A stretch of DNA of 38,632 nt, taken from positions 1 to 38,632 of the IMG/VR virus record IMGVR_UViG_3300009838_000011, one strand, 5' to 3'. Under the pieces are notes generated by a model that was not told the origin of the DNA, searched no databases, and saw only the letters and a list, made by a program, of their open reading frames with translations. The translations under genes were made by a program, and so were the position numbers. This DNA comes from a virus. Below, one piece after another: positions 3,424-38,632 of the stretch (the stretch's first letter is position 1; every line of letters begins with the position of its first letter).

Positions 3424-3759
3424 TTAACCAATAGCTAACCAACTAATTTGTTCGCTGGTTACATTTAAATCAGTATCAAGACCCATTGTAAAGCCACGAT
3501 CAGTGACTGTAATACCCAATGAGGTAATAACTGAAATAGCGCCATCAGCACCAGTTTTAACAGCTGAATCATCAGCCATTCCTTCATACCATTCCAAAGA
3601 AACTAAACCCGAAGCATTAAGGTTTTGAATCTTAACATATCGAGGTTTAAAACCAAGATCAGAAAAGGTATAAGCGGCAACTGTACCGGTATCAAGATAT
3701 CGACCAGTGGCAACTTGTGAAGCTACTCTTGGAGTTTTTGTTGTGATTGTTTGAGCCAT
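3424..3759 (-). CDS. Small virion protein, possible capsid decoration protein
   Basis: 111-aa beta-rich ORF immediately downstream of the major capsid gene. The call is positional only. Confidence 0.35.
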   Translation of the reverse strand: MAQTITTKTPRVASQVATGRYLDTGTVAAYTFSDLGFKPRYVKIQNLNASGLVSLEWYEGMADDSAVKTGADGAISVITSLGITVTDRGFTMGLDTDLNVTSEQISWLAIG

Positions 3760-3775
3760 ATTTTTATTTTTTATT

Positions 3776-3798
3776 CCCTCCGGTTATTCGCCGGAGGG
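3776..3798 (-). promoter_or_regulatory. GC-rich 8-bp stem-loop immediately after the major capsid gene (attenuator or RNA-stabiliser candidate)
   Basis: ccctccgg ttattcg ccggaggg. On the minus strand it is followed by an A-rich rather than U-rich tract. Confidence 0.45.
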
Positions 3799-3816
3799 CT
3801 AACTTTTAATTAATTA

Positions 3817-4785
3817 TTAAGCGGAGACACCAACTTCAATATCAACTATAAATGCGGCATTAAGGACTTTAGCTACATAAGCAGCTTTCCAGCCGGAGGT
3901 TGATCTTTGATTTAATGGGTCGGCAGTACCAGCACTACCTAAAGGTTTAACAATGTTCATTAATGCTTGACCACTAATTCTGGTTTGAGCGTAAGCATTT
4001 TTTCCGAAGATTAAAACATGATGAACATCATTACTGTTAGCACCACCAGCAGCTGAAACTGCGGCGTTGGAAGATTCAATGAATCTAACACCTGCTAAAG
4101 AACCAATTTCATCTGGCATAACCATTGATTTATTAGGATACTTTTCAACTGGAATCCAGCCAATAGCATCATCAAGGTCATAAGCCACATCTTCAGAAAC
4201 TATACCAACATAACATCGACCAATTGGAATAGTATCGTAACCGGTAGATGGATCAATCATGGAAGTTATCATTTTAGCGTTATTACCTTTTAGAGTTCTA
4301 ACAGCTTGTTTAACTTCTTCTCGGGTCAATTTCATAGCAGCGGTTATTTCCGTTCTTTGAGTAGCAGTCGAAGCATATTGTTTAGTAGCACCAGCCACTA
4401 AAATATCACGACAAAGTTGGTCCAAAGAATCACCAGCTTGTTCTCCTAAAATCTCGGCAGTTTCTGTCAAGATTGGGTCGTATGTTTCTGTTAAAACTTT
4501 ATCAGTTAAAGTTACATAATCACCATAATAAAGCACTGTGGCGGTGATATCAGTAACACTAAGTTGCTTACCTTCTGGAGTAACACCCTCTGTTAGAGCG
4601 GTTGTTTGAGCAGTAAGTAATCCATATCGGCGGAATTTAATAACATTTGTGCCGTTATTAGCAGGTATATCTCTTACCTGAGCGAAACGATTATGAACGA
4701 AAGCGGGAATTGCTTTATCAAGCAATGCTCGGTCATAGAAGTTATTAACTTCTACTGGAATTTCTGTCCTAGTTGTGTTTGACAT
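3817..4785 (-). CDS. Major capsid protein, N4-gp56 family (HK97 fold)
   Basis: The 322-aa ORF carries the family's hallmark string: NNFYDRALLDKAIPAFVHNRFAQVRDIPANNGTNVIKFRRY...LTEGVTPEG...YYGDYVTLTD...YDPILTETAEILGEQAGDSLDQLCRDILVAG. It sits downstream of the portal and scaffold-like genes. Confidence 0.92.
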   Translation of the reverse strand: MSNTTRTEIPVEVNNFYDRALLDKAIPAFVHNRFAQVRDIPANNGTNVIKFRRYGLLTAQTTALTEGVTPEGKQLSVTDITATVLYYGDYVTLTDKVLTETYDPILTETAEILGEQAGDSLDQLCRDILVAGATKQYASTATQRTEITAAMKLTREEVKQAVRTLKGNNAKMITSMIDPSTGYDTIPIGRCYVGIVSEDVAYDLDDAIGWIPVEKYPNKSMVMPDEIGSLAGVRFIESSNAAVSAAGGANSNDVHHVLIFGKNAYAQTRISGQALMNIVKPLGSAGTADPLNQRSTSGWKAAYVAKVLNAAFIVDIEVGVSA

Positions 4786-4920: not shown

Positions 4921-5481
4921 TTAAAATTGCTCTGATACTGGTTTTCCGGTTCGATCATCAATTCTGTCAAGCAAAATATTTGCTCCAGCTTGGGCAGTTA
5001 AATTTAATCGATCAGAAATAATTAAAGCCACTGGTTTTGGTACTTCCACCAATACTCCCTTTGGCACTAACCATTTAGCCCCATTAACTTGAATTTCCTC
5101 AATAGTATCAGGAGTAGTTAAAGCAATTTGAAAAGAATTACCTTTAGCATCTTTTCTCCATTCCACCACACCGGCTTTCTTGCCCGGATCAGAAGGATAA
5201 AGAATTTGGACCATTGGACTATTCATCCATTTATCCCACATAATTTGGGCTTTACTTCTCCATGCTTTTTCGGTTTTCTTTTCTTCAGATGGATTTATTG
5301 TTTCCTCAATACTATCCACTTTTTCCACTACTTTTTTAGCTTTTAAAGTATTAAGAATAGCTATCACTTGGGCTTTATTATTAAATTTGGCTGCCTCAAC
5401 ATCTTCTTTAGGCATACCAGCCTCAATTAATTCTTGTTCGAGTTCTTTTAATGTTTTTACTTCATTTGGTAAATCTGTCAT
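4921..5481 (-). CDS. Hypothetical head-module protein
   Basis: 186-aa ORF between the acidic scaffold-like gene and the capsid gene. No motif recognised. Confidence 0.6.
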   Translation of the reverse strand: MTDLPNEVKTLKELEQELIEAGMPKEDVEAAKFNNKAQVIAILNTLKAKKVVEKVDSIEETINPSEEKKTEKAWRSKAQIMWDKWMNSPMVQILYPSDPGKKAGVVEWRKDAKGNSFQIALTTPDTIEEIQVNGAKWLVPKGVLVEVPKPVALIISDRLNLTAQAGANILLDRIDDRTGKPVSEQF

Positions 5482-5501
5482 ATTTTTATATTAAATAATA
5501 A

Positions 5502-6086
5502 TTAGTAACCTTGTCGCCCTAAAACCTTAGCTTTTTGGGCTTCAAAATCTTCTTTAGAGGCGGTATGCCAATCTTTTTTACCACCACTTTCTTTTCTAAC
5601 TGTTGTTCCGGGAGTTTTAGTCTCAGCAACTTTCTTTTGAGCCTCCCTCTCTTTAGCTGCTCCAATTTTCATCATATCTTTAGATGCCACAATAGCAGCG
5701 ATATTATGAACTGGAATATTGGCATAATCCGGATGAGACATATATTTTAGGATTACTCCCTGATATTTAGCAAACTCTGGTTTAGCCGCAATAAAGGCTT
5801 GGACCTCTGTTTTATTTTCAATTTCTGATAACTTCGCTCCAACTTGCTTATTAACAATCTTAGTAATACGCTTATTATCCTCTTCATCAATATCCTCTTC
5901 TTCCTCTTCCTTTTTTTCTTCCCGCTGTCGTCTAACTTCAGGAGTTATTTTTTCGAGGTCAATTTCATCATCTCCCTCTTCTTTCTTCTCTCCATTGTCC
6001 TCTTCTTCTTCAGTTTTCCCTTCCTCGTCATCTATTTCTTCCTCTTTGGTTTCATCAATAACTTCATCTTTATTTTCTTCTGACAT
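5502..6086 (-). CDS. Putative scaffolding protein (extremely acidic N-terminal half)
   Basis: 194-aa ORF. The first ~75 residues are E/D/K-rich low complexity (EEEIDDEEGKTEEEEDNGEKKEEGDDE...). GGAG lies 8 nt upstream of the ATG. It sits between portal and capsid. Confidence 0.4.
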   Translation of the reverse strand: MSEENKDEVIDETKEEEIDDEEGKTEEEEDNGEKKEEGDDEIDLEKITPEVRRQREEKKEEEEEDIDEEDNKRITKIVNKQVGAKLSEIENKTEVQAFIAAKPEFAKYQGVILKYMSHPDYANIPVHNIAAIVASKDMMKIGAAKEREAQKKVAETKTPGTTVRKESGGKKDWHTASKEDFEAQKAKVLGRQGY

Positions 6087-6130: not shown

Positions 6131-6436
6131 CTATGTTTTAGGTACTTCCTCAAATGGATCATCATTAGGAATATCACCCTCATCACTTGGTTTTAACTTT
6201 TCAATCATATTAGTTGGAGTATTAATTATCTCTTCATGGACCGCTAATTTATCCCTTAACCTTTTTACTTCTTCCAAAGTCTCTTCTCCAGCTCCTTTTA
6301 AAAGCAATTCTTTAACCACTTCAATATTCTCTCTGACAATTGTTTCAAATAATTTCCAACCCGGATGGGTTAATAAATCCTTAAAATTAGATGATACTGC
6401 GGCTCTTTTTTGTTCTGTACTTAAATCTATTGGCAT
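6131..6436 (-). CDS. Hypothetical protein
   Basis: 101-aa ORF starting 3 nt after the portal stop. Confidence 0.6.
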   Translation of the reverse strand: MPIDLSTEQKRAAVSSNFKDLLTHPGWKLFETIVRENIEVVKELLLKGAGEETLEEVKRLRDKLAVHEEIINTPTNMIEKLKPSDEGDIPNDDPFEEVPKT

Positions 6437-6439
6437 ATT

Positions 6440-8473
6440 TTATTGTAAAGGCATGGCTCGGCCACCCATATTAGATGTTTGACTAGGAGCAATTGGTTTA
6501 GCACTAATACCGGGATTGCCGGTAATTGGTGTTTGAGTAGTCGTTCCCGGTTCTTGGAATGTCTCAGCATTCTTATCAATAGGGAATAACTCCGGTTTAA
6601 CCTTTTTAATTGATAATGCCTTTTTATGAGTTTCAATATGAGCCTTACTAGCTTCTGTCTCTTTTGCTTTAGCATGAATCTCTAAGTGAATGTTATGGTC
6701 ATCTTCAGGAAGTACCGGCACTAACTTATTCTCATTTAATAATTCATTTTGGTCCTCCGCAATTCGCTCATCAATAGTTGGCGGGAATAGTCTATCAATT
6801 TCATCTTTCTCTAAACCATTAAGTCTAGCTAATTTCTTCATACCCCATCTTTTATTAGCATTTGGATCAGCAAAAGCTACTGTAAAAAAACCATTTAAAC
6901 GATTGCTTTCTTCAAGTTGTTTAGCCCGACTAATAATTTGAGATTCAATAATTACATCCGGATCAATATTGGCAATAATATCGGATTTACTTAACTTACG
7001 CCATTTAGCACCAAAAGCACCAACAATTCTTAATACCTTTTCATCAATATCTTCGGCAAAATTATCTTTATAAAGGTTATACCAGTGTTGCCAAAATCTC
7101 TTTTCAGACCAACCAAAGACCTTAGCCGATAGTGAATAGCGGGTATCAACATTAGAAGCAACTAAATTAAGTTCTCCAAGAGTTCGCTGTTGAGATGAGA
7201 TTGCTCCCTGTTGAAGTTCCGGAGTAGCAGTTGCCTTTTGAGCTGAAGCATCAAGGGATTTATAAATAAAATCTAAAAGTTGTAAATTAGGTCGAGCCTT
7301 ATTAAGAGGAATAACTGAACTCTCCAATGATTCATTAGCTTTAACATCCACTCCAATATATTTATCAAAATCAAAATTCAAATCAGCCTTATTAGTAATT
7401 TTGTTAGTATTGTAAATATACATTGGGTATAAATCAGCTTTCATTGCTTTTAACCCTAAGTTTTGAGCAATAGCTCTAGCTCTTTGTTTATCTTCAACCA
7501 AATCCGGAATTGATGTACCATCCCAATCATGAGAAGTCGGATATAAAGGTCGATCAAGTATTGGCCAATAATTTCTTTTTAATTCTTTTAAACCTAATAA
7601 AATACTTCTGTCATTACCAAGCCATAATTTTACCTTAACAATCGAACCATCCGGTTTTTTCCAATGAGAAAACCATTGAGTTACATCATATTCAGCATTA
7701 GCACCTAAATCAGCTTCAGTATCTTTCTTTTGTGTTTGACGACCCTGAGCATCATCTCTGGATTGTTCCGCATCAGTAACTAATGATTGAGTTGATTCAC
7801 CATACTTTAAACTCTTAAAATCAATATCTTTAAAGAAATTTGGGTTATCTTCCATGTCCTGTCGGCTCATTTTTATATCATTACCACCAAAACGCATCGC
7901 TCCTTTACCTTTTCGATTACCATTAACTGATGTTGCCTTTGGATCACGCAACCAAGTTAAGAAATCAATGACTTCCGGTACTGGTAAAAAAGTATTATTA
8001 TCCGGGTCTCTTTCAAATTCTTCCATTAAAACTAAACCACGACCACAAAAAAGAGTATTAAAATCCCATTCAAAATCTAATTGGTCCTTTTCCATATCAT
8101 CATAATCTGCCTTCGCCATTGCCTCTAGGTTGTCCGCTGTCTCTTCATCGCCATCTTCCCTACCCCCAAACGATACCGCTAGTCTATCCTCATATAAAGA
8201 AGCTAAAACAGTCTGAAAAGTAGTAAATAAAGTTGTATCACCTACCGCTTCTTCATCCCGCTTTTGATTATTATAAAGTTTTAGTCTCATTCGCCACTTA
8301 TCAATCTTTGGCTTCATGAAATCAAAGGCAACTTTATATTCTTTTTGAACCTGTTGGATTAATGATTCATAATCTGGTTTATCTTCTTTATCTTTATCCT
8401 CAATCTTTTTACTTTTAGATTGAAGGGTATTAAAAATATCATCTGGTAAATCAAGTAGGTTTAATTCATTCAT
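6440..8473 (-). CDS. Portal protein
   Basis: 677-aa ORF. Size and position (downstream of terL, upstream of scaffold and capsid) are typical. GGAGG SD upstream, and the start overlaps the upstream stop. Confidence 0.7.
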   Translation of the reverse strand: MNELNLLDLPDDIFNTLQSKSKKIEDKDKEDKPDYESLIQQVQKEYKVAFDFMKPKIDKWRMRLKLYNNQKRDEEAVGDTTLFTTFQTVLASLYEDRLAVSFGGREDGDEETADNLEAMAKADYDDMEKDQLDFEWDFNTLFCGRGLVLMEEFERDPDNNTFLPVPEVIDFLTWLRDPKATSVNGNRKGKGAMRFGGNDIKMSRQDMEDNPNFFKDIDFKSLKYGESTQSLVTDAEQSRDDAQGRQTQKKDTEADLGANAEYDVTQWFSHWKKPDGSIVKVKLWLGNDRSILLGLKELKRNYWPILDRPLYPTSHDWDGTSIPDLVEDKQRARAIAQNLGLKAMKADLYPMYIYNTNKITNKADLNFDFDKYIGVDVKANESLESSVIPLNKARPNLQLLDFIYKSLDASAQKATATPELQQGAISSQQRTLGELNLVASNVDTRYSLSAKVFGWSEKRFWQHWYNLYKDNFAEDIDEKVLRIVGAFGAKWRKLSKSDIIANIDPDVIIESQIISRAKQLEESNRLNGFFTVAFADPNANKRWGMKKLARLNGLEKDEIDRLFPPTIDERIAEDQNELLNENKLVPVLPEDDHNIHLEIHAKAKETEASKAHIETHKKALSIKKVKPELFPIDKNAETFQEPGTTTQTPITGNPGISAKPIAPSQTSNMGGRAMPLQ

Positions 8474-11186: not shown

Positions 11187-11570
11187 TTAAGTCTCAATGA
11201 ATTTACACATCTTTCGATTCTTTATTTTATTCATCATCATTTTCTTTTTTAGCTTATAAACATCAGTAAGTTTTCCTTTAACATCTTCAATCACTAATAC
11301 TTCATCTTCCATATAAGTAAAATCAGCAAAATAACAGATAGGTCTAATCTTTTCATGACCATACCAAAATCCCTTAACTAAGACAAATTTTACTTGTTGT
11401 TTTAAACGACTAATTACTCCACCCTTAACTAAAAGATTCAGCTCATCGCATCTCATAGCCTCTTTTTTTGAATCATGGAGGTGTTTTTTGGCACATCTGG
11501 TCTTTTTAGCTCCATATTTGTTTTTTCCAGCTATTTGTTTTTTATATTCTTCAACACTCATTTCTATCAT
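11187..11570 (-). CDS. DUF1064-family nuclease-like protein (Holliday-junction-resolvase fold)
   Basis: 127-aa ORF with KNKYGAKKT...HDSKKEAMRCDELNLL...YFADFTY...VIEDVKGKLTDVYKLKKK, matching the conserved DUF1064 pattern. Confidence 0.8.
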   Translation of the reverse strand: MIEMSVEEYKKQIAGKNKYGAKKTRCAKKHLHDSKKEAMRCDELNLLVKGGVISRLKQQVKFVLVKGFWYGHEKIRPICYFADFTYMEDEVLVIEDVKGKLTDVYKLKKKMMMNKIKNRKMCKFIET

Positions 11571-11625
11571 GGTGGGAGGTGGCGGACTCGAACCGCCTCT
11601 ACCGTCGTAGATACCATTAACTCCC
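11570..11625 (-). ncRNA. Orphan tRNA 3' module: variable-arm-like hairpin, T arm, acceptor 3' strand and CCA (not a complete tRNA)
   Basis: The minus strand reads GGGAGUU-AAUGGUA-UCUAC GACG GUAGA-GGCGG UUCGAGU CCGCC-ACCUCCC-A-CCA. The T loop UUCGAGU is canonical. No D arm or anticodon arm can be drawn. The final A is the A of the DUF1064 ATG. Confidence 0.6.
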
Positions 11626-11786
11626 TAAAAAAATAACAGGTGAAAAACAACTGTACTCATGGCTGTCGGTGATTGGCCATTTGGCACGAACCGGCAGCGG
11701 GGCAGGGTACAAAAGTTTTCCCTAACCTGAAGTATAAAAAGTAGATAATTAGACTTCTAGTTATTGCCTGTTAAACAAAGTTACAC

Positions 11787-11963
11787 CTATTCTACTGACT
11801 TAGCAATAGTTTGTATTTTGTTTTTTAAATCAATCAACTGATTATGGACCAAATCATTTCGATCCAACTCAGTTCCCGCTTTTTTATCCATTAATTCACA
11901 TACCGCTTGGTAAAGCAAACCAAGTTCTCCTCTAGTTATTATTATCTTTATTTCTTCATCCAT
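11787..11963 (-). CDS. Hypothetical mini-protein (58 aa, below the ORF-track cutoff)
   Basis: Hand translation gives MDEEIKIIITRGELGLLYQAVCELMDKKAGTELDRNDLVHNQLIDLKNKIQTIAKSVE*. The ATG lies 1 nt after the upstream stop. Confidence 0.45.
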   Translation of the reverse strand: MDEEIKIIITRGELGLLYQAVCELMDKKAGTELDRNDLVHNQLIDLKNKIQTIAKSVE

Positions 11964-13193: not shown

Positions 13194-13465
13194 ATATTTA
13201 AACCTCCACTTTTAATAAACTCTAATTTTTCTTTTTTAGTTTCAAAAATATTTCTTCTAGTAATATTGATATTGTCAATCTTATCCATATTAATAAATTT
13301 AATTTCTTCAGTAGTTTCCATATCTCCAACCTTCTTCTTTTCAACATAGTAAAAGATTGTGCCACCATTACTTGTACCGTATTCGGAACAATTTTTAATA
13401 ATATCTGTTCCACCACCATTACTAACTGATTTATAAACTATCTCTATATCGTATTTTGTTTTCAT
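13190..13465 (-). CDS. Hypothetical protein
   Basis: 91-aa ORF. Confidence 0.6.
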   Translation of the reverse strand: MKTKYDIEIVYKSVSNGGGTDIIKNCSEYGTSNGGTIFYYVEKKKVGDMETTEEIKFINMDKIDNINITRRNIFETKKEKLEFIKSGGLNI

Positions 13466-13480
13466 AATTTTAATTAATAA

Positions 13481-13729
13481 TTAATCGTGAAAGTCAATTT
13501 TTTCTTTATACCCATCTTTGGGCTTTCTTAAGTTATTAATCTGATAACCATATTCAGTTTCATCATTTTGATTAGCCCATCCAATTGCCTCCTCTAATGA
13601 ATCAAAAACCTTAGTGGTATTTTGTAAAGTTAAAGGCTCATTTATTATTGCTTCTTCAGCATTTAAATTATCCCAAAGATAAACCTTATCACCAACCTTA
13701 ATAATTGACATGTAATTATTTGCGCTCAT
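13481..13729 (-). CDS. Hypothetical protein
   Basis: 82-aa ORF with GAGGAAA SD. Confidence 0.6.
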   Translation of the reverse strand: MSANNYMSIIKVGDKVYLWDNLNAEEAIINEPLTLQNTTKVFDSLEEAIGWANQNDETEYGYQINNLRKPKDGYKEKIDFHD

Positions 13730-13730
13730 T

Positions 13731-13862
13731 TTATTTCCTCACAAAATTTAAAAATATTAATGCTGTAAAACAAAAAGTAACTACTACCGCAAACAAGGTA
13801 AAACCCTCCTCTTTGGAGATTATCCTTAAAGATCGCAGTATTAATTTATATATTTTTTTCAT
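13731..13862 (-). CDS. Single-TM mini-protein (43 aa, below the ORF-track cutoff)
   Basis: Hand translation gives MKKIYKLILRSLRIISKEEGFTLFAVVVTFCFTALIFLNFVRK*. ATGA overlap with the upstream gene. Confidence 0.5.
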   Translation of the reverse strand: MKKIYKLILRSLRIISKEEGFTLFAVVVTFCFTALIFLNFVRK

Positions 13863-15971: not shown

Positions 15972-16043
15972 GCCTCTTTAGTACAACGGCTAGTACAGTA
16001 GTTTTGTAAACTTCTAATATCTGTTCAATTCAGGTAAGAGGCT
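15972..16043 (+). tRNA. tRNA-Thr (anticodon UGU), 72 nt, no encoded CCA
   Basis: Hand-folded cloverleaf: GCCTCTT-TA-GTAC-AACGGCTA-GTAC-A-GTAGT-TTTGTAA-ACTTC-TAAT-ATCTG-TTCAATT-CAGGT-AAGAGGC-T. U8, A14, GG in the D loop, A21, U33, A37, G53-C61 and TTCAA are all present, with one T.T mismatch in the anticodon stem. The reverse orientation lacks a T loop. Confidence 0.8.
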
Positions 16044-16225
16044 CAATCCTTAATCTCCTTTATTGTCTTTAAAGCCTTAATTGCTAATTTAACCGCACCA
16101 TCATCCGAATTATGTTTTATCTTTGATCCATCATCACAAATATAAAATCCCGTCTCTAAAACCCGATTAACAACTGTTCTAGTATAAATTGGTTTTCCAT
16201 TTATTAAAATTGATACTGTTAGCAT
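16043..16225 (-). CDS. Hypothetical protein
   Basis: 60-aa ORF. Its stop codon overlaps the tRNA discriminator base by 1 nt (convergent). Confidence 0.55.
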   Translation of the reverse strand: MLTVSILINGKPIYTRTVVNRVLETGFYICDDGSKIKHNSDDGAVKLAIKALKTIKEIKD

Positions 16226-19014: not shown

Positions 19015-22000
19015 CTATTTTCCTAACTGTTTCTTTCTTTTGTTAGATAACCACTCATTCGGAGCGGCTACCCAAGCATCCCAATTACCATTCAAGTCAT
19101 AAAGAATCTTTGCCATCTTAATATTATTTATTGGTTCAAGCATTTTATCCCATAGAGCAGTCGCCATTTCAGGGGTAATATCAGCATAGTTTTTGTAGCT
19201 TTCATCAATAATTCCAGCATCAATCATCATTTGTCTTTCAACCTTACCACCCAATAATCCATCCGGACCAAGAAGGCGGCTATTGTTGATTCTAAATAAT
19301 CCTCGATCAGTTGAGTTTTCATTTTCTCCACTAAATTTATTTTTAAATGTTTTGACTGGCGCAGTATCACTCCATAAACCAGTTTTAGGGTCAATTTTAT
19401 TTTCAACATCAATTTCCTTACCGGCAAGTAGTTGAGTATTTTCTCCCCTGATAACACCATCACTATCGGTCCTCTTTAATATCTTTGTGGCTTCTACCCA
19501 CTTATCACCAAAGACACTCTTGATATCGTCATTGTAAGGGGTTTCAGTAGCCTTTGGACTAGTAATAGTTGGCGCTGGTTCGGTTTCTCCCTCGCCAATA
19601 TTTTCTACTTCTTTAGTTGGAGTTGGAGTAACCATTTTTTCTTTTTTCTCTTTTTCCAGTATTCCTCTAACTACTTTCTCTTCACCCAAATCAAAACCCA
19701 ATATTCTTTTTTCTACCTTATTACCAATATTTTGATAATACCAATCAGGGTTTTCTTCTCTTAAAGCTAACATGGTTTGATAATATTCTCTCTTTTGATC
19801 ACTAGTTAATTTATCTTCAATTATACCTTCAATCGGATTCTCATACTTTTGAACTCCGGGTATTAATTTAGACATATTACCTAAAAACTTTTCCCATCCG
19901 CTTCGAGTATCTTTGGACCATACCAACTGTTTGTTACTGCCTTCAATCCCCTCCGCAGCAAAAGCTGGTTTAACTAATTTAAAATCAAAGTTAAGTAGTT
20001 TTTTCTTTTCTTCATAACCACTTTTTTTATCCAATACCTTTAATTCATCCACTACTTCCTGACTAATGATTTTATATTTCAAAGCATCATTAACAAGAGC
20101 TTTAAAATCATCAGTTCTCATCGCCTTTTGGAATTGTTGAAGGTAGTCTAGTTTTTCCGCATTAAGATTAGAATAAATCAATTTATCCATATAAGGTGAT
20201 TCACCCTTTTCTCTTTGAATAGTAAATTTCTTTGCCAATGCCTTACCTTCAGTGATTAAATCTTTATCAGTCGGTAATTCACCGCCAAAATATTCTTTTA
20301 CCATTTCGGTTCTTAATTTACCAAGTTCTTGTTCATCATTAATTCCTCGACTTAATTTGACATACTTATCAACTATTTCTCTTTTTTTAATAGATTTTCT
20401 GGCTGCTTCTTGATCGGCGTTAGAAGTAAATTGCTCTTGTAATCCATAACTACTGGTTTGAAACATTCGATTAATAACCGGAATTGATTGTAAAGTTACT
20501 TCGGTAGTTGATCGGCTGCCAAAATCATAAGTTTTAAAATTACCTAAACCAACAGTATTAAGTGAGTATTGGACCATTTTACCCAATCGAATCATCCCTC
20601 CAGCTTTCCAAGAAGTCTCATCAATAGCTAGTCTCCCCCGATAACTGTCATAAGGATTTCTACCTTGTAGGTAGCCTAACCAATCACCAACAGCGGTAAA
20701 TAGTGGGGTAGGGGAGGGGATATACCCAGCACCCAAAGCTCCAATTTGCTCTGGTTTAACTATCTTGCCCTGAACCATACTACTAAAAGTTTTCCAAACA
20801 ATCGCACTAACAAATCTCTCTGTTTCATCTTGGGGAATACGCATATAAACCGCCTTTCCATTTTCATCAAATCCCACTGGTACAGTAATATAATTGGTTT
20901 TGTCATATTCAGTTTGGCTTTGGAAATTCTTTTTAACCCATTCACCAAATAGACCACTCAATCCCATTACCATTAATAATTTTGGTAATACTCCCACTAT
21001 AAAGGTTCTCATCCAATAACCGGAAGCAGTCTTTGGGTCGGTAGCCAATTCCACACTAGCCCTAGTTGCCTGAATCATCACATTGGAAAAGACAAAAATA
21101 TCATTATCCATCTGTTTATAAGTACCGCCTTCAGTATAGTTTGGCGTACCGACATAATTTCGGGTAATAAAGCCTAATTTCTTTCCATCATCAATTCTTT
21201 TCTTAGCAATTTGATAACCGGATATTTTTGAAGTGGCTTCAAAAGTACCACCGGCATATTTAATAGCTTCTAAAATCTTTCCAAAACTATTATTAAATAA
21301 TTTTCGAACTGCTCCTATTTTCTCTTCTTTACCTAATATTTTGTGTTGTCGAAGCAAAAAGGCAATTGAACTATCATTATTGGCATGAGGGTCATATTGC
21401 GACCATTGAGTAGTAATAGCTTTATTAGACAACATTTCTTTTATCAATTCTGTCTTTTTACCCGCCGCAAATTTAGCACCTTCGGGGATAGACTTAATAT
21501 AAGTGGTAAGCATTTCTCCAATAGTTACTCTTTTCTTGCCCGGAGCAAACTTATTTAAAACTGAACCTAGTGAAATATAGGTACGCTTGGTATCTCTAAT
21601 GATATTGGAATAAAAACCCCATGATAAATTGTAGGTAGTAACCAATGGTTTAAATATCTTATTAAATACCCTAGCAATCCCCACTAATTGATGGACCTCA
21701 TCAGCGGTCATATTCTCATTTTCAAACATGGATTTAATATAAGGATCGACATTATAGCCAACTCTTCGACCATCCTTCATCATTTCCAAGACTTCCATAT
21801 TATCTTCTCTCTTAAAGCGGATAACAGTACCTTTATTGGTTCTAATTGCCTTTGCTTCCTTTACATCATCAGGGAAATATTGTTGTAATTCACCTAGAGC
21901 CACTTGTTTAGCTTCCTGTATATTATTCCATTCAATTAAAGCCACTGTTTTTAAGACTGATGAAGTAAATGGGTTCTCAATTCTTTTTAAAGTACCCACC

Positions 22001-25000
22001 TGTTTTTTAATTCCGGCATCAATATAATTTTTATGGATATAATCAACCACACTAAAAGTAGCGTAAGTATCTTTATTTGGCGCTATCTTCTCTTCAAAAA
22101 CTTGTTTATTGATATTGCCATTTTTAACTGCTCTCTCATTTTCAGAAAAAATCAATTCATGAAATCTTTTTTTAACTTGTTCAAATACTTTAATCTGTTC
22201 TTCGGTTAAATTCCTTTGTTTGTAATACTGATTTAAAACCACTTCAGGTATATTGCCGATTAAACCACCCGGATTAGCCAAATTGATTCTGTCTCCTAGA
22301 GCTTCTCTTTCCAATTTTAGGACCACACCCAAATCATCTTCGCTTAAACCAATCTTTTCTAATGGGTCGGTAATTTCAGTAGTGATTCGGTCCAAAAAGA
22401 TAGCCTGATCGTTTCGCCTCATATTCATTATTTCCAAAGCCTCTCTAACTTTTTGTTTACTGGATTCAACTACCCCAATATCTACCTTTGCCAGTTTCCT
22501 ATAAATTGGGTCAAATTTAGTAACATGGTTTCTTATTAATCTATCAATAAATGGTTTTCTTGGTTTTTCGGTTTGTTCAATCTCTTCTCTCTTCTTTCTT
22601 GCTTCTTTAAACCCTTCATAGATTTCTTCAAGTCGTTTATTATTTACTTCTTCTTCGCCCTTATCAAGCATTTCTAGGGTATCAAAATAAACCTTTTCTA
22701 ATTCCGGTTTATTGTTTAAGTATTCAAAGAATCCATCATAAAACTTAGGAGCTACTTTTTGAAGTAAGCCCGGATCATTTAAAAGAACTGATACCGCATC
22801 AGCGTAAAGCTCTTTGGCACTGTATCTATATTTAGTAAAGTTTTCATTAACAGTTTCATCAAATGGTTTCCAAAGCTGGGTAAGATTTTTTAGTTCATTT
22901 TTAATCTCTCTATTATTCAAATCAGCATACTTGCCTTCCATAAATTTACTTAAAGAAGCAATATGGCCAATTAAATTACCTCTAGTTGTAAAACCATCAG
23001 GAATAAAGTCGGCAATATGACCAATCTCATGAGCCAAAACTTTACCAGCTACCACTGGATCATCAAAGATTCTGGGATTAAGTTTAATCATGCCTTTACC
23101 CTTCTCATACATTCGACCCAAAGCAGTTTTAAAAGCCTTTAGAGTTGGCACATCTCCAGTTAATTCCCGAACTAGTCTCACCATTTCCGGGAATTGGATA
23201 GCCCTAATATGGTTTAAAACCACTCCAGCGGATTCTAAATCAGCATAACCACCAATATCAGCATTACCGCTTGGCGCTTTATATTTACTAACATCATTAT
23301 CTTTAATCTGTTTTAACTCAATTTCCCTTAATAATTGCTCTTTTTTAGTAGCTATCTGCTCTTCACTTAATTCATTTAAGTCTTTGGTTTTATCAACAAA
23401 CTCGCTGACATGATCAGCGATAGACTTTCTATTGGCAATCATCTCATCATATTGGCGTTGAAACTTAGCTAATCTGTCTTTATAAGTTTCAGTAATTTTG
23501 CCAATATCAATATTTACCTGTTCTTTTAGAGTTTCAATTCTTTTAATCTCCGCATCAATATCGGTAATTCCCGCTTTGTCTAATTTCTCTTGAATAGAGA
23601 CTTCTTCTTTTTTGGCTTTATTAACTTCCTTTCGGTAGTTACTAATGCCTTCAGGGTCAATCGGACTACCCCATTGAGTTTTACCGGTAACAATCCTTTC
23701 AGAATTAAATTGGATTTTTTCTTTTAAGGCTTCTCTCCTTTCCTTGATTCTGTTTAAATTGCCAATATCAGTAGAAAACATAACCAGTTGATTTTGTAAT
23801 CCCGCCTTATCCATTTCAATTTCAATGGCTGCCTTATCTTCAGGGTTAGTCATTAGCGCTAGTTTCTTTTCTCTTGGGTCTAATTCACCCACATCAAATA
23901 TCTGTCCTTGATAAGAAAATAGGTCATTGATTCTGCCGCCTTTTTCTTCAAACTTATTATAAACAGTAATATCACCGGAGTTTTCCACTAGAGGATAAAT
24001 AAGAGGCGCTATGGACCGCTTGTTTCCTTGTCGCCATACCCTTCCTTCTACTTGGGCAGGTTCGGTTGGATTCCATCCTAAAGCATTATTAATGGTTACA
24101 TATCCATTATTCTGTAAATCAATTCCTTCCTTAGTTGGATCACCGCCAATTAATAGTTTAACTTTGCCATCATTAAAGTCTTGCTTAATAGCTTCCCGCT
24201 CATCATTACTGGTTGAGCCATTAATCACTGCTACTTCACTGCCTTTAAAACCTAAATGTTTCACCGCATATTCAGCCAAATGGTTATGGTATTCTACTCC
24301 ATTTGCTCCCATATAAAGGAATGTTCCATATTTTTTAGTAGATTCATTACCTTTAAGCCACTTAACTAATTCCATTGAGTATTTAAGTTTAGGAGAATTA
24401 TCAATCAACTCTTCTGGACTGACAATTTGCGGCTGGTATTCTTTAATAAAATAAGGGGAGATTGAATTAGCTACCGAATAAGTTGAAGCCTTTAAGACCG
24501 CTCCATCCTCCGGTTTGCGATTATCCGATGGTTTTAACATCTCTTGAATTTTAGTTAAGTTCTCTTCCTGTAAGGCACTCATTTGAAGAGTTGGGGTCAT
24601 TACCCTTCGCTCTGGTCTTACTAATGTTGGATCAACTTGGTAATCAACAAACTCTCTTAATATCTTTTGGAGTTGAGGTAGGTTTTTAAATGACTTCATC
24701 TTTTCTTTATTCACCCATTCACCTCTGACATTCTTTTCCATTTCGGTTTCAAAGTTGGAGAATAAAGCAAAGAAATCATTAATATTAAATATTCCAATTT
24801 TCTTTAATCTATCCCTAGCTACCAATGATAGGATGTTATAAACCTCTGTGGCGTGGTTTTCAAAGGGAGTAGCCGAAGCAAGATATACTCCTCGATTATT
24901 ATTCTTCTTTAAAATATATTGGGAAATAATAAATAGTTGTTGAGCCTGTTTTGATGGCGTACCACCAATAACATTACCAAACCTTTTAGTTTTTGATTTA

Positions 25001-28000
25001 TCAACACTACCATCAGGATTAACCGCTTCCGGTTTAGCGCCTTGAAATATCTTTCTAAAATTATGAACCTCATCAACTGAAATATGGTCAATACCTAAAT
25101 CGGTAATTTTAATATCTCCAGCTTTATATTGAGCTTTACCAACAATCTCTTGAATCTTTGACTTTTGAAGTTCCCCTTTTCTAGCTGTTTCATTTTCTGT
25201 TCCCAAAGCATCAGTTAAATCACCAATGGCGCTATTTAATTCATCCGGAGTTAAAGATAATCTTAATAAACCTTCATGAGTAAGGACCGCTATCTCTCCA
25301 TCTTTAATCCACTTGGTTTTATCTTTACCTCTCTCCTTTTCTATTTTGGTTACTTCTGGTTTAGTTAAACCGCCGAGATTGACAATAGTTTCATTAGGAA
25401 ACATTGATTTAATGGTAGTTATCCAAGTTTGAGAAAGAGTAGATTTAGGTACAATGAAAGCGGGTCTTTTGGTCCAGCCTTTTTGTTTGGCCACCATTGT
25501 AGCGGTTAAGAGGGTATGGGTTTTACCCACTCCCACTCCATAAGCCACCAAACCAACACCCTTATTGGTTAAAAAAGAAACTCCATTAGATTGAGTTGGC
25601 GATAGTTTAAAGGTCTTACCCCTAAAGAATTTCGCCATATCTTTAATTTCTGTTGGAATTTTAGAATAATCCGGATTGACATAACTATTCTTTTCTTTAT
25701 TAAATTTATCGACTATCTGATTTTGAATATCTGAATCCAAAACATTTCGAATAAAGTAATTAAACAACCTTGCCGAATCTGCTTTAATTGCTCCCATAAT
25801 GTTTTTAGTACCCGGAGAAGCCCGATAACCTAAAACATAATTGCGAATATCATAGCGATTAACTCCATAAGATAAGGCCGAATCAGTCTTATTTAAGAAA
25901 CTAATAAATTGATCAATAATTCTAGTTCCAGCTTCCTCATCTAGTTTAATTTCAGTAACATATCTATCTAGTGGGTCAAAGGTAATATCCTTTAATTCCA
26001 CTGGCTTAGGTTTAATAGCTTCCAAACCATTTAATTGTTTGTCATATTGAGCTTGTCCTAATTTAGAAATAATGGTTTCTTTATCCGCTTTAAGTTCTTC
26101 TATTTTTTGATAAACATCACCGCTAAAATAATTGACATCATGGTAATACTTTCCTTGAAAGTAGTTTAAAATCTTTTTAGCTTCGGGAATAAAATCAACA
26201 CTGCCATCAACCTTAGTATCTTTTAAGATTTTGGATTCAACCGGATCAATATTAGAAATTCCACCACTGACTGTTTGGACCGGTACTGTCTCCACCTTTA
26301 ACTTATCCGGTTTAATAACTGGAGGTAATTTACCGGTCTTGCTTTGTTTGGTTATATTTCTTTTAGTCTTTATAGAATAAGAAGGTTCTTTAATTGGCTT
26401 TGGTTTAGCGGTTTTAGTTGGCTTACTCACTTCAACTGTTTCTGTTTCTTCTACTATTGGAGATAATCTTAAAACATCATTTAAATCTCCTTTAACAAAA
26501 GTTTCCTGTTGGCCGAATCGATTTTGTCTTTGTTCTACTGTTCCAGCTACATTATCCGGATTCTTTTCAAAGTAGTTACCACTAGTCATATCAACCACTC
26601 TCTTTTGAATTTCTAGTCTATCAAGTGAGCCACCTTTTTCAGAAAGTTTGGGAGTTTTTTGAAACACCACTATATCTGTACCAATACTGGTATCAGTAAA
26701 GATTCCTTCGGGTAATCGGTAGGCTTGGATTAATTTACCGGTTTTAGCTATCTCTTCTTTAGCAAAACTGTTTTCCTTATTTAAGAAAGAAGAATTGACA
26801 ACATAAACCAATTTTCCGCCTTCCTTTAATGATTCAAGCCCTCGCTTAATAAAAAACTCTTCCCATCGATTAATCTTTGGTTCTACCCCTTTACCTTTAA
26901 GAAAAGAGGCTCTTTCACCAAAGGGAGGATTACCCACCACTAAATCATAATTGGCTTTAGGTTCATGAGTTTCAAAATTACCATCATTACCAAATTCTTC
27001 TCCATTACCAATCTTAATATTAACTTCCGGATATAATAATTTAGCGATTGTTCCTGATACCTTTTGATATTCATAAGCATCCCATTTAATAAAAGATGGG
27101 TCATAAATCAAATTACCAGTACCGGCACTTGGCTCTAAAATAGATTTAGCGTTTGGTTCTAACATCCTTGCTATCTGCCATACCTTATCAACTACTTCCG
27201 GTGGAGTATAGTATTCCGATAATAAACCTTTACCACTTGCTCCAGTTTCAGCCTTACCACCAGCACCACTAAATAAAGCTAATTTATCTAATTCTTCTTG
27301 GGTATAATCTTTTCGATCAGTGGAAAATTCATGACCCATTAATATTAATTCGGCTTCATTATTGGCTTCGGCTCTAGTTACTTTTCCGCCAATTGTTCTT
27401 GTTCGCTTAGGTCCATTTCCAGATTCACTAATGCTTGTTGTCTCGTCATGGAGCGATCTTTCATCAACTTCTGGATTGCGTTCTCTATCTGTTGGCTGTC
27501 GTACTTCACCAGTGTCGGGAACTCTTGTGGGTTGAATGGTTGTGGTTTCATCTACTGGTATTATACCTTTTTCTGCCAATCTCATCAAATCCGAGACTAT
27601 ATTTCTTTGCCATTCAACTTCATTACTGATTTTATCCATTTCCTCTTTTACCCAATTAGGGAATAAACCCATCTTAACACCAGCTTTTTCACTCTCATTT
27701 AATCTACCCCAAATACCATCCGCAGTAACCGATGTTGGATTCTCATTGGTAATTGGTTCAATTGTTTCCGGTTTAGTGGCTTCATAACCGCCTTCCTTTT
27801 TGGGTATTAAATCAAATTTTTTAACAGTTACTTTTGTTTTTTTAGTTTCTTTAGGTTTGTACTTATTAATAAACTCCTCTTCCATTCGGGCTTGTCTTGA
27901 TATAATTTCATCTCTTTTACCTTCTAAACCTGCCCGATTTTCTTTATTGGCTTCTTTAATCTGTTTATTTAATTCTTGGACCTGATTTTCCATCTCTCCA

Positions 28001-37432: not shown

Positions 37433-38536
37433 TTAAGCGGCTTCATAAGTACCAGACATAACGCAGTAATGACCAGCTGCCCAAGTTAAAGGAACAGTGG
37501 AACTACAACCAGAAATAGTAGTATAAGTACCACTTGCATTGTAAGCAAAAATTATTCCATTACCAGTAATTGATAGGTGATAAGATGTTGCACCATCAAA
37601 AACCGAACCATGACCAAGACCATCGGTATAAGCACCATAACCAGAACTAGCACTCACTGGCAAAGTTAAACTTATAGCACCGACTGATATTCCTGTTCCG
37701 CCTAATACAAATTTAATTCTCCAATGAACAGTTTTACCTATTTGGCAATAAGCACCCACTAAAGTTCCAGTTGAACCCACATTTAAGTTGGCAATCGTTG
37801 GATTAAAAGATGTCCAAGCACCTGTTTGCCCATCTAAAGCATTTAATTCAGCAGCAGTTGAGGTAACAGCAGTACCAGCACCGGCACCAAGTTTTAAGCC
37901 ACCATCAGCAATAGATAATGTATCAACATTTTTGTCCGCACCTAGAACTAATGCTTTACTAGCAACAGCAGTACCAGCGACAGAACCATCAATTAAATTT
38001 ACCTCTGTAGCAGTAGCACTTATGGCTACATCTTCATTTAATTTTGGAGAAGTAAATCTTTTATTAGTTTGAGTTTCAGTTCTGGAGGCCAAGTCAATCC
38101 ATTTTAATCCTGTAGTTTCACCACTATCAGCCACTAAACCATATCCATTAGTTCCAACACCAAGTCTGGCATAAACAGTTGAAAAGGTTAATAAATCTCC
38201 CTTAGTAGTTAAGACATCAATTTGATCCCATACTCCATCAGTAGGAGATAAATAAAATTCATCACCAACTACTACAGTTCTAGCATTAGAAGATTCTTGT
38301 GTACGAGTAATAGTGAAATTATCATTGGCCGGATCATGAGAAGTAACAAGGACCACTTCGGCATTATCTGGATTAGCTGGAACACCAGCGGCTTTAATAA
38401 CACAAACATAAGTACCACCTGAAGTATTGGGAAATCTAGCACCTTCACCACTAGCACAAACTAAAGTAGTACCGGATGCAGCAGGACTTGGAGCAGTAGC
38501 GACTGTTGTATAAGCAAAATTCTTTCTCTGATACAT
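37433..38536 (-). CDS. Tail fibre protein
   Basis: 367 aa. The N-terminal domain (...EVVLVTSHDPANDNFTITRTQESSNARTVVVGDEFYL...) follows a pattern common at phage fibre N-termini. The central QTNKRFTSPKLNEDVAISATATEVNLIDG motif is shared with ORF 35370-36305. Its first 27 nt lie in the terminal repeat. Confidence 0.6.
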   Translation of the reverse strand: MYQRKNFAYTTVATAPSPAASGTTLVCASGEGARFPNTSGGTYVCVIKAAGVPANPDNAEVVLVTSHDPANDNFTITRTQESSNARTVVVGDEFYLSPTDGVWDQIDVLTTKGDLLTFSTVYARLGVGTNGYGLVADSGETTGLKWIDLASRTETQTNKRFTSPKLNEDVAISATATEVNLIDGSVAGTAVASKALVLGADKNVDTLSIADGGLKLGAGAGTAVTSTAAELNALDGQTGAWTSFNPTIANLNVGSTGTLVGAYCQIGKTVHWRIKFVLGGTGISVGAISLTLPVSASSGYGAYTDGLGHGSVFDGATSYHLSITGNGIIFAYNASGTYTTISGCSSTVPLTWAAGHYCVMSGTYEAA

Positions 38537-38632
38537 AGTTTAATTATAAACTAAATCATCAGTATTAGGCAGTTGTTACCTGAATATTATGTGTAATTTG
38601 AAGTGAATCACCAGAAACAACATTGACTGCTG
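38510..38632. repeat. Terminal direct repeat, copy 2 (identical to 1-123)
   Basis: Read directly; see copy 1. Confidence 0.95.

Follow-up and report, generated by a model that had tools for sequence, protein, structure and literature searches.

Introduction

The described system closest to the element treated here is the RNA of mycobacteriophage DS6A, which is characterized, in the passages that two sources devote to it, as little more than the transfer RNA (tRNA)-like domain (TLD) of transfer-messenger RNA (tmRNA); according to the same passages, a similar molecule inhibits tmRNA in Escherichia coli whether it is chargeable or not (PMC4131195; PMC11915505). In both, the inhibition of trans-translation by such a TLD-only-like molecule is credited to Mao et al. 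(2009). The present article concerns a 56-nucleotide (nt) tRNA-like element in IMGVR_UViG_3300009838_000011, a 38,632-nt record of an uncultured podophage that was analyzed over its whole length and is hereafter referred to as the window. Among phage RNAs, the TLD-only, tmRNA-like form has been known from one case, DS6A, and the element is a smaller and divergent variant that occurs in unrelated, uncultured podophages. It is a conserved structured RNA, and most likely a self-contained gene for an anticodon-less tRNA-like RNA, i.e., the TLD-only form at its smallest. An original prediction, made from the letters of the window, had noticed an orphan tRNA 3′ module at this site and had offered three explanations: a tRNA-like processing signal, a relic of a class II tRNA gene or of an attP-type duplication, and a mini tRNA-like decoy.

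Structure of the Minimal tRNA-Like Element

The element is located on the minus strand at 11625..11570 and reads GGGAGUU-AAUGGUA-UCUAC GACG GUAGA-GGCGG UUCGAGU CCGCC-ACCUCCC-A-CCA; all parts of it described below are on the same strand. It closes the 216 nt of non-coding sequence between the end of a 58-aa open reading frame (ORF) at 11787 and the start of the DUF1064 ORF at 11570, and a G+C island (44–47%) extends over this stretch, as compared with 34% in the phage genome. Both the gap and the succession of T arm, acceptor strand, discriminator, and CCA had been read exactly in the original prediction.

The minimum free energy (MFE) fold of the 56-mer alone comprises three helices (−21.8 kcal/mol, 72% of the ensemble, z = −2.05). 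In the acceptor stem, the 5′ strand GGGAGUU (positions 1–7; 11619..11625) is paired at six of its seven positions with the 3′ strand ACCUCCC (positions 66–72; 11574..11580), and the pairing proposed beforehand for these two segments is thus seen in an independent fold. C70 faces G3, and therefore the window copy does not have the G3:U70 identity pair for alanine. The 5′ strand is followed by a D-loop-like single strand, AAUGGUA (11612..11618), which is unpaired in the MFE fold and whose GG (11615–11614) is aligned by Rfam with the GG of the D-loop analogue of tmRNA. The earlier statement that no D arm exists accordingly holds for the D stem, which is absent, but not for the loop, since AAUGGUA with its T-loop-docking GG is present and conserved. 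The central hairpin UCUAC-GACG-GUAGA (11598..11611) stands in the place of the anticodon arm or of helix P2 of tmRNA and is succeeded by the T arm GGCGG-UUCGAGU-CCGCC (11581..11597), which has a perfect 5-bp stem and a canonical 7-nt T loop. The acceptor 5′ strand and the T arm are only 21 nt apart, and 14 of these nt form the 5-bp hairpin between the D-loop and the T arm. The discriminator A73 (11573) is followed by an encoded CCA (11572–11570), and A11570, the last nucleotide of CCA, doubles as the A of the DUF1064 ATG, as had been pointed out originally.

No tRNA is called over the element by ARAGORN or by Rfam at the gathering score, and no tmRNA is called there by ARAGORN; a D stem and an anticodon arm, both of which belong to the canonical cloverleaf (RF00005), are lacking, in agreement with the initial view that there is no anticodon arm and no callable full tRNA. 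A relaxed pattern consisting of a T arm, six of seven acceptor pairs, GG, and any 4-bp hairpin was encountered 22 times in 300 first-order Markov resamples, i.e., approximately 0.07 times per genome, and a single copy is therefore only mildly significant. It is the conservation and covariation in relatives that settle the element as more than a product of chance.

Distribution and Covariation in Related Podophages

Relatives were found with the large terminase (TerL) as the anchor, and the phage loci obtained are labeled by L-numbers; DUF1064 as a query yielded no relatives, and the 1.3-kb region had no BLASTN match in 50,697 phage records. The same architecture is present in four other podophage lineages. 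In L116, L117, and L121 (TerL 71%), it reads GGGAGUA-CUUGGUAUA-UCAAUC UUUU GAUUGG-U-GGUGG UUCAAAU CCGCC-AACUCCC-A-CAG and is then followed by ATG; the L116 element is located at the identical site, behind the same upstream leader as in the window. In L011 (TerL 66%), the sequence is UGGAUGG-UAAUUGGUAU-GCAGGUUG CUUUAC CAACCGGC-GGCGG UUCGAUU CCGUU-CCAUCCA, and synteny is retained around it: homologues of the 52-aa and 58-aa genes precede the element, and the nuclease, small terminase (TerS), and TerL genes follow it, the next ORF being approximately 325 nt away. L007, L055, and L079 (TerL 60%) carry GGGAGUG-AAUGGUAAGC-AUCC UACG GGAU-AAU-GUGAG UUCGAUU CUCAC-CACUUCC-A-CCA; this copy has a perfect 7-bp acceptor stem, G3:U70, A73, and CCA, and in L007 it heads a tRNA array, downstream of a TTGACA box, 0 nt before tRNA-Asp, with tRNA-Gln next. 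Finally, L122 (TerL 65%) has a 104-nt version, the 5′ end of which reads GGGGCUGACUCUGGAAC, 20 nt upstream of the small-terminase ATG. The sequences of the window, L116, L007, L011, and L122 each fold alone into the same three-helix shape, and the elements of the window, L007, L011, and L116 are located 0.9–1.4 kb upstream of the TerL start.

Covariation was counted on helix strands extracted by hand; MAFFT and model-based alignments placed the acceptor strand of L011 out of register. Over the acceptor and T stems of the five sequences, 58 of 60 cells are paired (96.7%), and both partners differ between sequences in 7 of 12 pairs; the covariation score was reached by none of 500 shuffles, and pairing fell to 40–62% when the partner strand was slid. 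Acceptor pairs 1, 5, 6, and 7 are compensatory, all four close members retain G2-C71 and A4-U69, and the T-stem pairs 50:64, 51:63, and 52:62 change on both sides in the relatives. The central hairpins of the relatives are unrelated in sequence and yet paired (CAAUC/GAUUG, AUCC/GGAU, and GGUUG/CAACC), with a length of 4 bp in L007, 8 bp in L011, and a long helix in L122, and with 0–3 nt to the T stem. Such variation in length, together with a position in the place of the anticodon arm or P2, speaks against the former interpretation of this hairpin as the long variable arm of a class II tRNA. UGGUA is kept in the window, L116, L007, and L011, and A73 in the window, L116, and L007, whereas CCA is encoded in the window and L007 only, L116 having CAG and L011 no CCA. 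G3-C70 is found in the window, L116, and L011, and G3:U70 only in L007.

A covariance model built from the window and L007 alone (R1) finds L116 with 27.7 bits (E = 7.8e-6), but this two-sequence model was too narrow to recover L011. A further model (R2) found no additional close members in 0.7 Mb of loci, and nine further TerL-related loci gave no TLD-like match with Rfam. In IMG/VR, the pattern AATGGTA...GTTCGANTC...ACCA occurs at 39 loci, among which the 5′ acceptor strand adjoins AATGGTA in the contig of L007 only; those that were followed up are the 3′ ends of full or reduced tmRNAs (L059 and L051) or parts of ordinary tRNAs. IMG/VR scans with a GGGAGT-specific pattern and with a leader pattern returned only contigs that had already been found.

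Among close relatives, the element can be present or absent. In L102, the closest relative (TerL 83%), which lacks it, five nucleotides separate the leader from the DUF1064 ATG. In L112 (TerL 84%), the nearest relative to have an occupant there, a 76-nt cloverleaf tRNA-like element (1384–1459) lies at the exact site of the mini element behind the same leader; the call by ARAGORN is tRNA-Phe with AAA, an unusual anticodon, and one Rfam scan of this locus gave no tRNA match. The junctions are A73-CC-AUG in the window, A73-CU-AUG in L112, and A73-CAG-AUG in L116, and A73-CUA of L112 overlaps the DUF1064 ATG as in the window. Such a sporadic, movable, gene-like distribution is also seen for the tRNA genes of phages and for further accessory functions in host takeover, and the presence or absence among close relatives fits an accessory gene of the latter kind.

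Proposed Function and Alternative Explanations

The function that we tentatively favor is that of an excised, trans-acting mimic of the top half of tRNA or tmRNA, with titration of SmpB as the leading guess. Among the three explanations offered originally, the decoy lay closest to the evidence, and it is sharpened here, with the same reserve, to a top-half mimic of the tmRNA-TLD type. In the proposed mechanism, the element would be transcribed behind the conserved leader together with the DUF1064 and terminase genes, and would then be excised in the manner of a tRNA, with RNase P cutting at G1 and the 3′-end processing of tRNAs acting at A73/CCA. The free, CCA-ended 56-nt RNA would be stable enough to accumulate and would in trans occupy a host factor that reads the top half of tRNA or tmRNA. 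SmpB would be the best candidate for this factor, and trans-translation would be damped during infection; in E. coli, a TLD-only molecule is reported to have this effect. Because of G3-C70, the window copy is predicted not to be chargeable by alanyl-tRNA synthetase (AlaRS), and it would therefore serve as a sponge rather than a rescuer. By its sequence, the L007 copy, having G3:U70, A73, and CCA, could be chargeable.

The comparison with tmRNA is based on a sensitive Rfam scan, in which tmRNA (RF00023) is the only match over the element (14.5 bits, E = 6.6e-4 in a 451-nt search). The match spans model positions 1–17 and 346–374, approximately 330 internal positions being deleted, and comprises the acceptor 5′ strand and D-loop analogue followed by the T arm, acceptor 3′ strand, and ACCA. 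On the same model, L007 scores 31.3 bits and L122, with its tmRNA-like 5′ end, 17.9 bits. Several observations weigh against a mimic of tmRNA in particular. The score of the window copy is far below the gathering threshold of RF00023 (47 bits), amounting to about a third of it, and the model gives 40 bits to an ordinary tRNA-Ala (L064 3161–3236); low tmRNA scores therefore signify an alanine-type acceptor stem and T arm, not a tmRNA. The third acceptor pair of tmRNA has been described as a completely conserved G-U (PMC3985003), unlike G3-C70 of the window copy, which moreover does not have the UCGAC...GGAC helix-2a signature that DS6A keeps. The marks of descent from tmRNA (a GGGGnnG 5′ end, G3:U70, and UCGAC...GGAC) are all absent from the window, and members of its phage clade show some of them, G3:U70 being found in L007 and GGGGCUGACUCUGGAAC in L122. 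Furthermore, the L112 cloverleaf with the same ATG junction fits descent from a tRNA and a role in cis equally well. The element is TLD-like in architecture, with descent from either tmRNA or tRNA, and is not a tmRNA.

It is possible, though not what we expect, that the element acts in cis as a processing signal of the kind known as tRNA punctuation, in which case RNase P and RNase Z would remove the leader, the DUF1064 mRNA would be left with a leader of 0–3 nt and translated in the leaderless mode, and the mini-RNA would be a by-product. The DUF1064 ATG, which lacks a Shine-Dalgarno sequence, lies in or beside the 3′ tail in three related phages despite their differing tRNA-like bodies, the 3′ end being 2–3 nt from the ATG in L112 and L116, and L112 keeps at this site a cloverleaf that does not look like a decoding tRNA, given the AAA anticodon call and the missing Rfam tRNA match. 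Moreover, the approximately nine TATAATTAAT-ATG motifs of the phage imply routine use of leaderless or near-leaderless mRNAs, and a cut after A73 would leave CC-AUG. These points bear out part of the punctuation idea in the original prediction, but the arrangement is not family-wide: L102 has the same gene starting from UUUUUUUUUGAUAU-AUG without the element, the L007 copy precedes two tRNAs that are themselves processing signals, and the distance is approximately 325 nt to the next ORF in L011 and 20 nt to the small-terminase ATG in L122. In addition, CCA is encoded, so that full 3′ maturation would remove the A of ATG, and, as the three adjacent cases are from related phages, the shared junction may be inherited rather than selected. 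Processing in cis and action in trans are compatible with each other, and both are joined in a more far-reaching proposal, which we regard as doubtful: the elements would constitute a new phage class of top-half tRNA minigenes, not descended from tmRNA and placed behind a leader at the head of the packaging module, with processing and released-RNA roles. RNase P and RNase Z would excise the minigene and leave a near-leaderless late mRNA, and the released, uncharged, CCA-ended 56-nt RNA would be a sponge or trigger-blocker of SmpB or of SmpB-like defense proteins.

A decoy in trans for a reader of the acceptor stem and T arm other than SmpB is unlikely, although it shares the structural and distributional evidence with the SmpB proposal, and the absence of G3:U70 and of the helix-2a motifs is more in keeping with a generic top-half mimic than with a mimic of tmRNA. 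Candidates for such a reader are acceptor-end toxins or nucleotidyltransferases, defense sensors that have SmpB-like domains (CnuH of CoCoNuT systems), the CCA-adding enzyme, RNase P, and EF-Tu after anticodon-independent charging, and defense systems with SmpB-like OB folds that are predicted to bind tmRNA have been described (PMC11090510). However, no specific target can be named from the sequence, the sole experimental precedent for an RNA of this kind concerns tmRNA and SmpB, and no defense or tRNA-repair gene was found in the window by Pfam scans, which covered all minus-strand ORFs of at least 100 aa but one (6131..6436, 101 aa). It is quite improbable that the element is a decaying, functionless remnant of a phage tRNA gene like the L112 cloverleaf that has lost the D stem and anticodon arm. 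The 76-nt cloverleaf at exactly the same site and the dispensability of the element in L102 would agree with decay, and, to the eye, GGUAGCACGAC and GUAAGAGCUGGUUC in L112 are similar to GGUAUCUACGAC and GGUAGAGGCGGUUC in the window, a similarity that MAFFT did not confirm. Yet it is the mini form, not the cloverleaf, that is kept across TerL 71% (L116), 66% (L011), and 60% (L007), with the T arm still perfect, the central hairpin still paired, and substitutions that compensate each other, and neutral decay in a genome of 34% G+C would not retain a fully paired fold of 59% G+C. If a host tRNA or tmRNA gene had been duplicated at its 3′ end in the manner of attP, this would account for a T arm and a CCA-terminated 3′ acceptor strand, a combination found in many attP sites, and ssrA is a common integration target (PMC11915505); nevertheless, we consider such an attP-type origin next to negligible. 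No integrase was detected in the complete genome by the same Pfam scans, as the original prediction had already stated, the 5′ acceptor strand is present and covaries, and the relatives differ in sequence at the same place. Among 185,579 species genomes, the 25-nt 3′ block is matched exactly only once, by a class I tRNA-Val of a G+C-rich metagenome-assembled genome (MAG) from the verrucomicrobial Puniceicoccales, and in IMG/VR it has no exact match. With an unrelated class I tRNA-Val as the only exact match, an attB or class II tRNA origin was dropped, and the suggested relic of a class II tRNA gene or of attP fails on the same grounds, together with the retention of the element in four other lineages.

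Upstream Leader, Neighboring Genes, and Further RNAs

A conserved structured leader (11626..11725, minus strand) adjoins the element but stays outside its fold. It consists of an outer helix, a variable inner hairpin with the strands CUGCCGGU/ACCGACAG at 11697–11663, and then CCUGUUAUUUUUUU at 11640–11627; a TATACT hexamer is found at 11736–11731 on the minus strand. The hairpin and the hexamer are both present as originally noted. In the consensus, the leader reads (U)AAUACUUUUGUAC(C/U)CUGCCC, the variable covarying inner hairpin, and (C/U)AUG(A/U)GUACAGUUGUAUUU-CCUGUUAUUUUUUU, and in the fold obtained from a five-phage alignment, 4 of 12 pairs are compensatory. Further copies are located in L112 (1285–1383), L116 (872–971), L102 (36–139), L119 (44–140), and L011 (about 3465–3534). 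Downstream of the leader, the mini element is found in the window, L116, and L011, the cloverleaf in L112, and nothing in L102 and L119. The leader has no Rfam match. It contains TACUUUUG, which fits the −7 promoter box of Bacteroidota. It may combine a promoter with a leader RNA, or function as an attenuator or as a site related to packaging. The idea that leader and element form one larger or permuted tmRNA was rejected, because the 5′ strand of the acceptor stem lies next to the rest of the element and the 56 nt need no further sequence to fold. In L011, a relatively G+C-rich stretch of approximately 320 nt (3602–3924) without a convincing ORF lies between the mini element and a VRR-NUC-like nuclease gene; within it, a UUCGUGCC...GGCAC hairpin recalls the inner hairpin in the leader of the window, and the stretch may be another RNA.

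The DUF1064 gene (11187..11570, minus strand), the start codon of which overlaps the CCA end of the element, was identified by Pfam (PF06356, 2.4e-18) and PHROG (phrog_190, 8.5e-32), and its product belongs to the Holliday-junction-resolvase family of PHROG. The protein start M-I/E-E-M is common to L102, L112, and L116, with or without a tRNA-like element upstream. Approximately nine copies of (G)TATAATTAAT are present in the phage, each 5–7 nt ahead of an ATG on the minus strand (ATGs at 38536, which equals 27, 37369, 31496, 19000, 17533, 11168, 9091, 1632, and 885), and six of them are at the starts of ORFs of at least 100 aa. This spacing would put the transcription start at or beside the ATG; leaderless or near-leaderless mRNAs therefore seem to be widely used, and, as far as these motifs indicate, the phage appears to use them routinely.

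The phage genome is complete, because identical 123-nt copies are present at 1–123 and 38510–38632 of the window; it is circular or terminally redundant, with a unit length of 38,509 bp, and almost every gene is on the minus strand. The sequence originates from JGI metagenome 3300010429. A tRNA-Thr(UGU) (55.8 bits; 15972–16044) is encoded on the plus strand, opposite to essentially all genes, within a stretch of approximately 470 nt that has no convincing minus-strand ORF. A single minus-strand ORF of 3,706 aa (19015–30135) accounts for 29% of the genome; judging from its Eco57I-type methylase, SNF2/ResIII, and helicase-C domains, the product looks like a giant DarB-like injected anti-restriction protein. 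Among the related loci, proteins with an RRM_1 domain are encoded directly upstream of the small-terminase gene in L122 (2868–3365) and L124 (2759–3142), the L122 gene call overlapping the 5′ end of its TLD-like RNA. The related phage L005 has a group I intron match (1578–2398) upstream of the terminase gene, which carries an insertion of approximately 560 nt and scores 46.2 bits (E = 1.5e-8) against a gathering score of 50.

Reduced and rearranged tmRNA-like RNAs were also observed. L051 contains a 134-nt reduced tmRNA (5772–5905) behind a TTGACA-17-TATAAT promoter, with the acceptor strands GGGGAUG/CAUCUCC and G3:U70; it scores 66 bits on the Rfam tmRNA model and is missed by ARAGORN. In L047, a 110-nt RNA on the minus strand (5374–5483) is located five nucleotides after a full-length phage tmRNA (5489–5882) and contains a pair of T arms and a pair of 7-bp acceptor-type helices, both of the latter with G3:U70. 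Its outer helix has the standard order and ends in ACCA, the inner one has the permuted order of two-piece tmRNA genes, and the MFE fold is a nested "double TLD". The same locus has a 104-nt tmRNA-like match (8135–8238) and a GOLLD RNA match (13244–13747). As judged from their sequences, these RNAs suggest that phages carry truncated tmRNA mimics more often than one would expect from the literature.

Implications and Comparison with Known Systems

If the RNA is made and acts as proposed, interference with ribosome rescue by a tmRNA mimic would recur beyond one mycobacteriophage, in forms too small and divergent for tmRNA or tRNA finders to report. The 56-nt window copy, lacking both G3:U70 and helix-2a, would define the smallest natural RNA that keeps the elbow of acceptor stem, T arm, and D-loop, and it would be a useful natural test of the minimal needs of SmpB, RNase P, RNase Z, and the CCA-adding enzyme. 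In A+T-rich phages, such genes can go unnoticed in short, G+C-rich gaps ahead of the terminase genes. Should the element act in cis, it would be an example, from a bacterial virus, of tRNA punctuation giving a leaderless mRNA; should it have both roles, it would correspond, in a bacterial virus, to the tRNA punctuation of mitochondria, the signal being a minimal tRNA that has no anticodon. What is notable is the minimal form together with the fusion to a start codon; the concept itself has a precedent.

Laboratory constructs of the minihelix and TLD share the coaxial stack of acceptor stem and T arm with the element, which differs from them as a natural, conserved gene that keeps a D-loop analogue. 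For RNase P, the CCA-adding enzyme, and some synthetases, the smallest substrate is this acceptor-TΨC stack carrying NCCA, and the TLD-SmpB constructs that have been crystallized are, like the element, capped with a tetraloop. The tRNA shapes of mitochondrial tRNA punctuation and of mascRNA resemble the element in abutting an ORF, and end processing could likewise give a leaderless message; by contrast, those signals are full or near-full cloverleaves with demonstrated cleavage, and the element, known from sequence, has neither a D arm nor an anticodon arm. It abuts coding sequence directly, with a 1-nt start-codon overlap in the window and 2–3 nt after A73 in L112 and L116, but such abutment is not found in L007, L011, and L122. 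An assignment to tRNA mimics of the YrlA/Y-RNA type was rejected, as a closing Ro-binding helix is missing and the RNA ends in NCCA.

Canonical tmRNA (ssrA, RF00023) shares with the element the acceptor stem, T arm, D-loop GG, A73-CCA, and an RNase P-type 5′ end, and the layout of its TLD, i.e., a joined acceptor stem and T arm and a D-loop analogue without a D stem or an anticodon arm, is also that of the element. It differs in having an mRNA-like domain, a resume codon and tag frame, pseudoknots, and G3:U70, none of which are present in the window copy, and the score of the latter is below the gathering level. The mitochondrial tmRNAs without a reading frame, in jakobids and others, and the plastid forms of approximately 65 bp are likewise reduced to the TLD and of comparable size (Jacob et al., 2004; PMC11915505). 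They differ in that their gene order is usually permuted, that a dedicated SmpB co-occurs, and that they are thought still to serve ribosome rescue; at the element, the Rfam model for mitochondrial tmRNA gives no match.

The DS6A RNA (tmRNA Website tmID 11587; JN698994, 28478–28560) is, like the element, encoded by a phage and devoid of a tag reading frame and of pseudoknots, and it combines a 7-bp acceptor stem, an AAUGGU-type D-loop without a D stem (CAAUGGUGGU loop), one central helix, a T arm, and A73. A DS6A-type RNA, in the definition taken from PMC4131195, is a phage RNA of less than approximately 100 nt with an acceptor stem, a D-loop analogue, one helix, a T arm, and N73, and the element has each of these parts. 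The two differ in that the DS6A RNA has 83 nt, G3:U70, a CGAC/GCAC helix-2a signature, and 43.2 bits on RF00023, whereas the window copy has 56 nt, G3-C70, a plain 5-bp hairpin, and 14.5 bits, and is fused to a start codon; moreover, DS6A is unrelated to the window phage in both phage group and G+C content.

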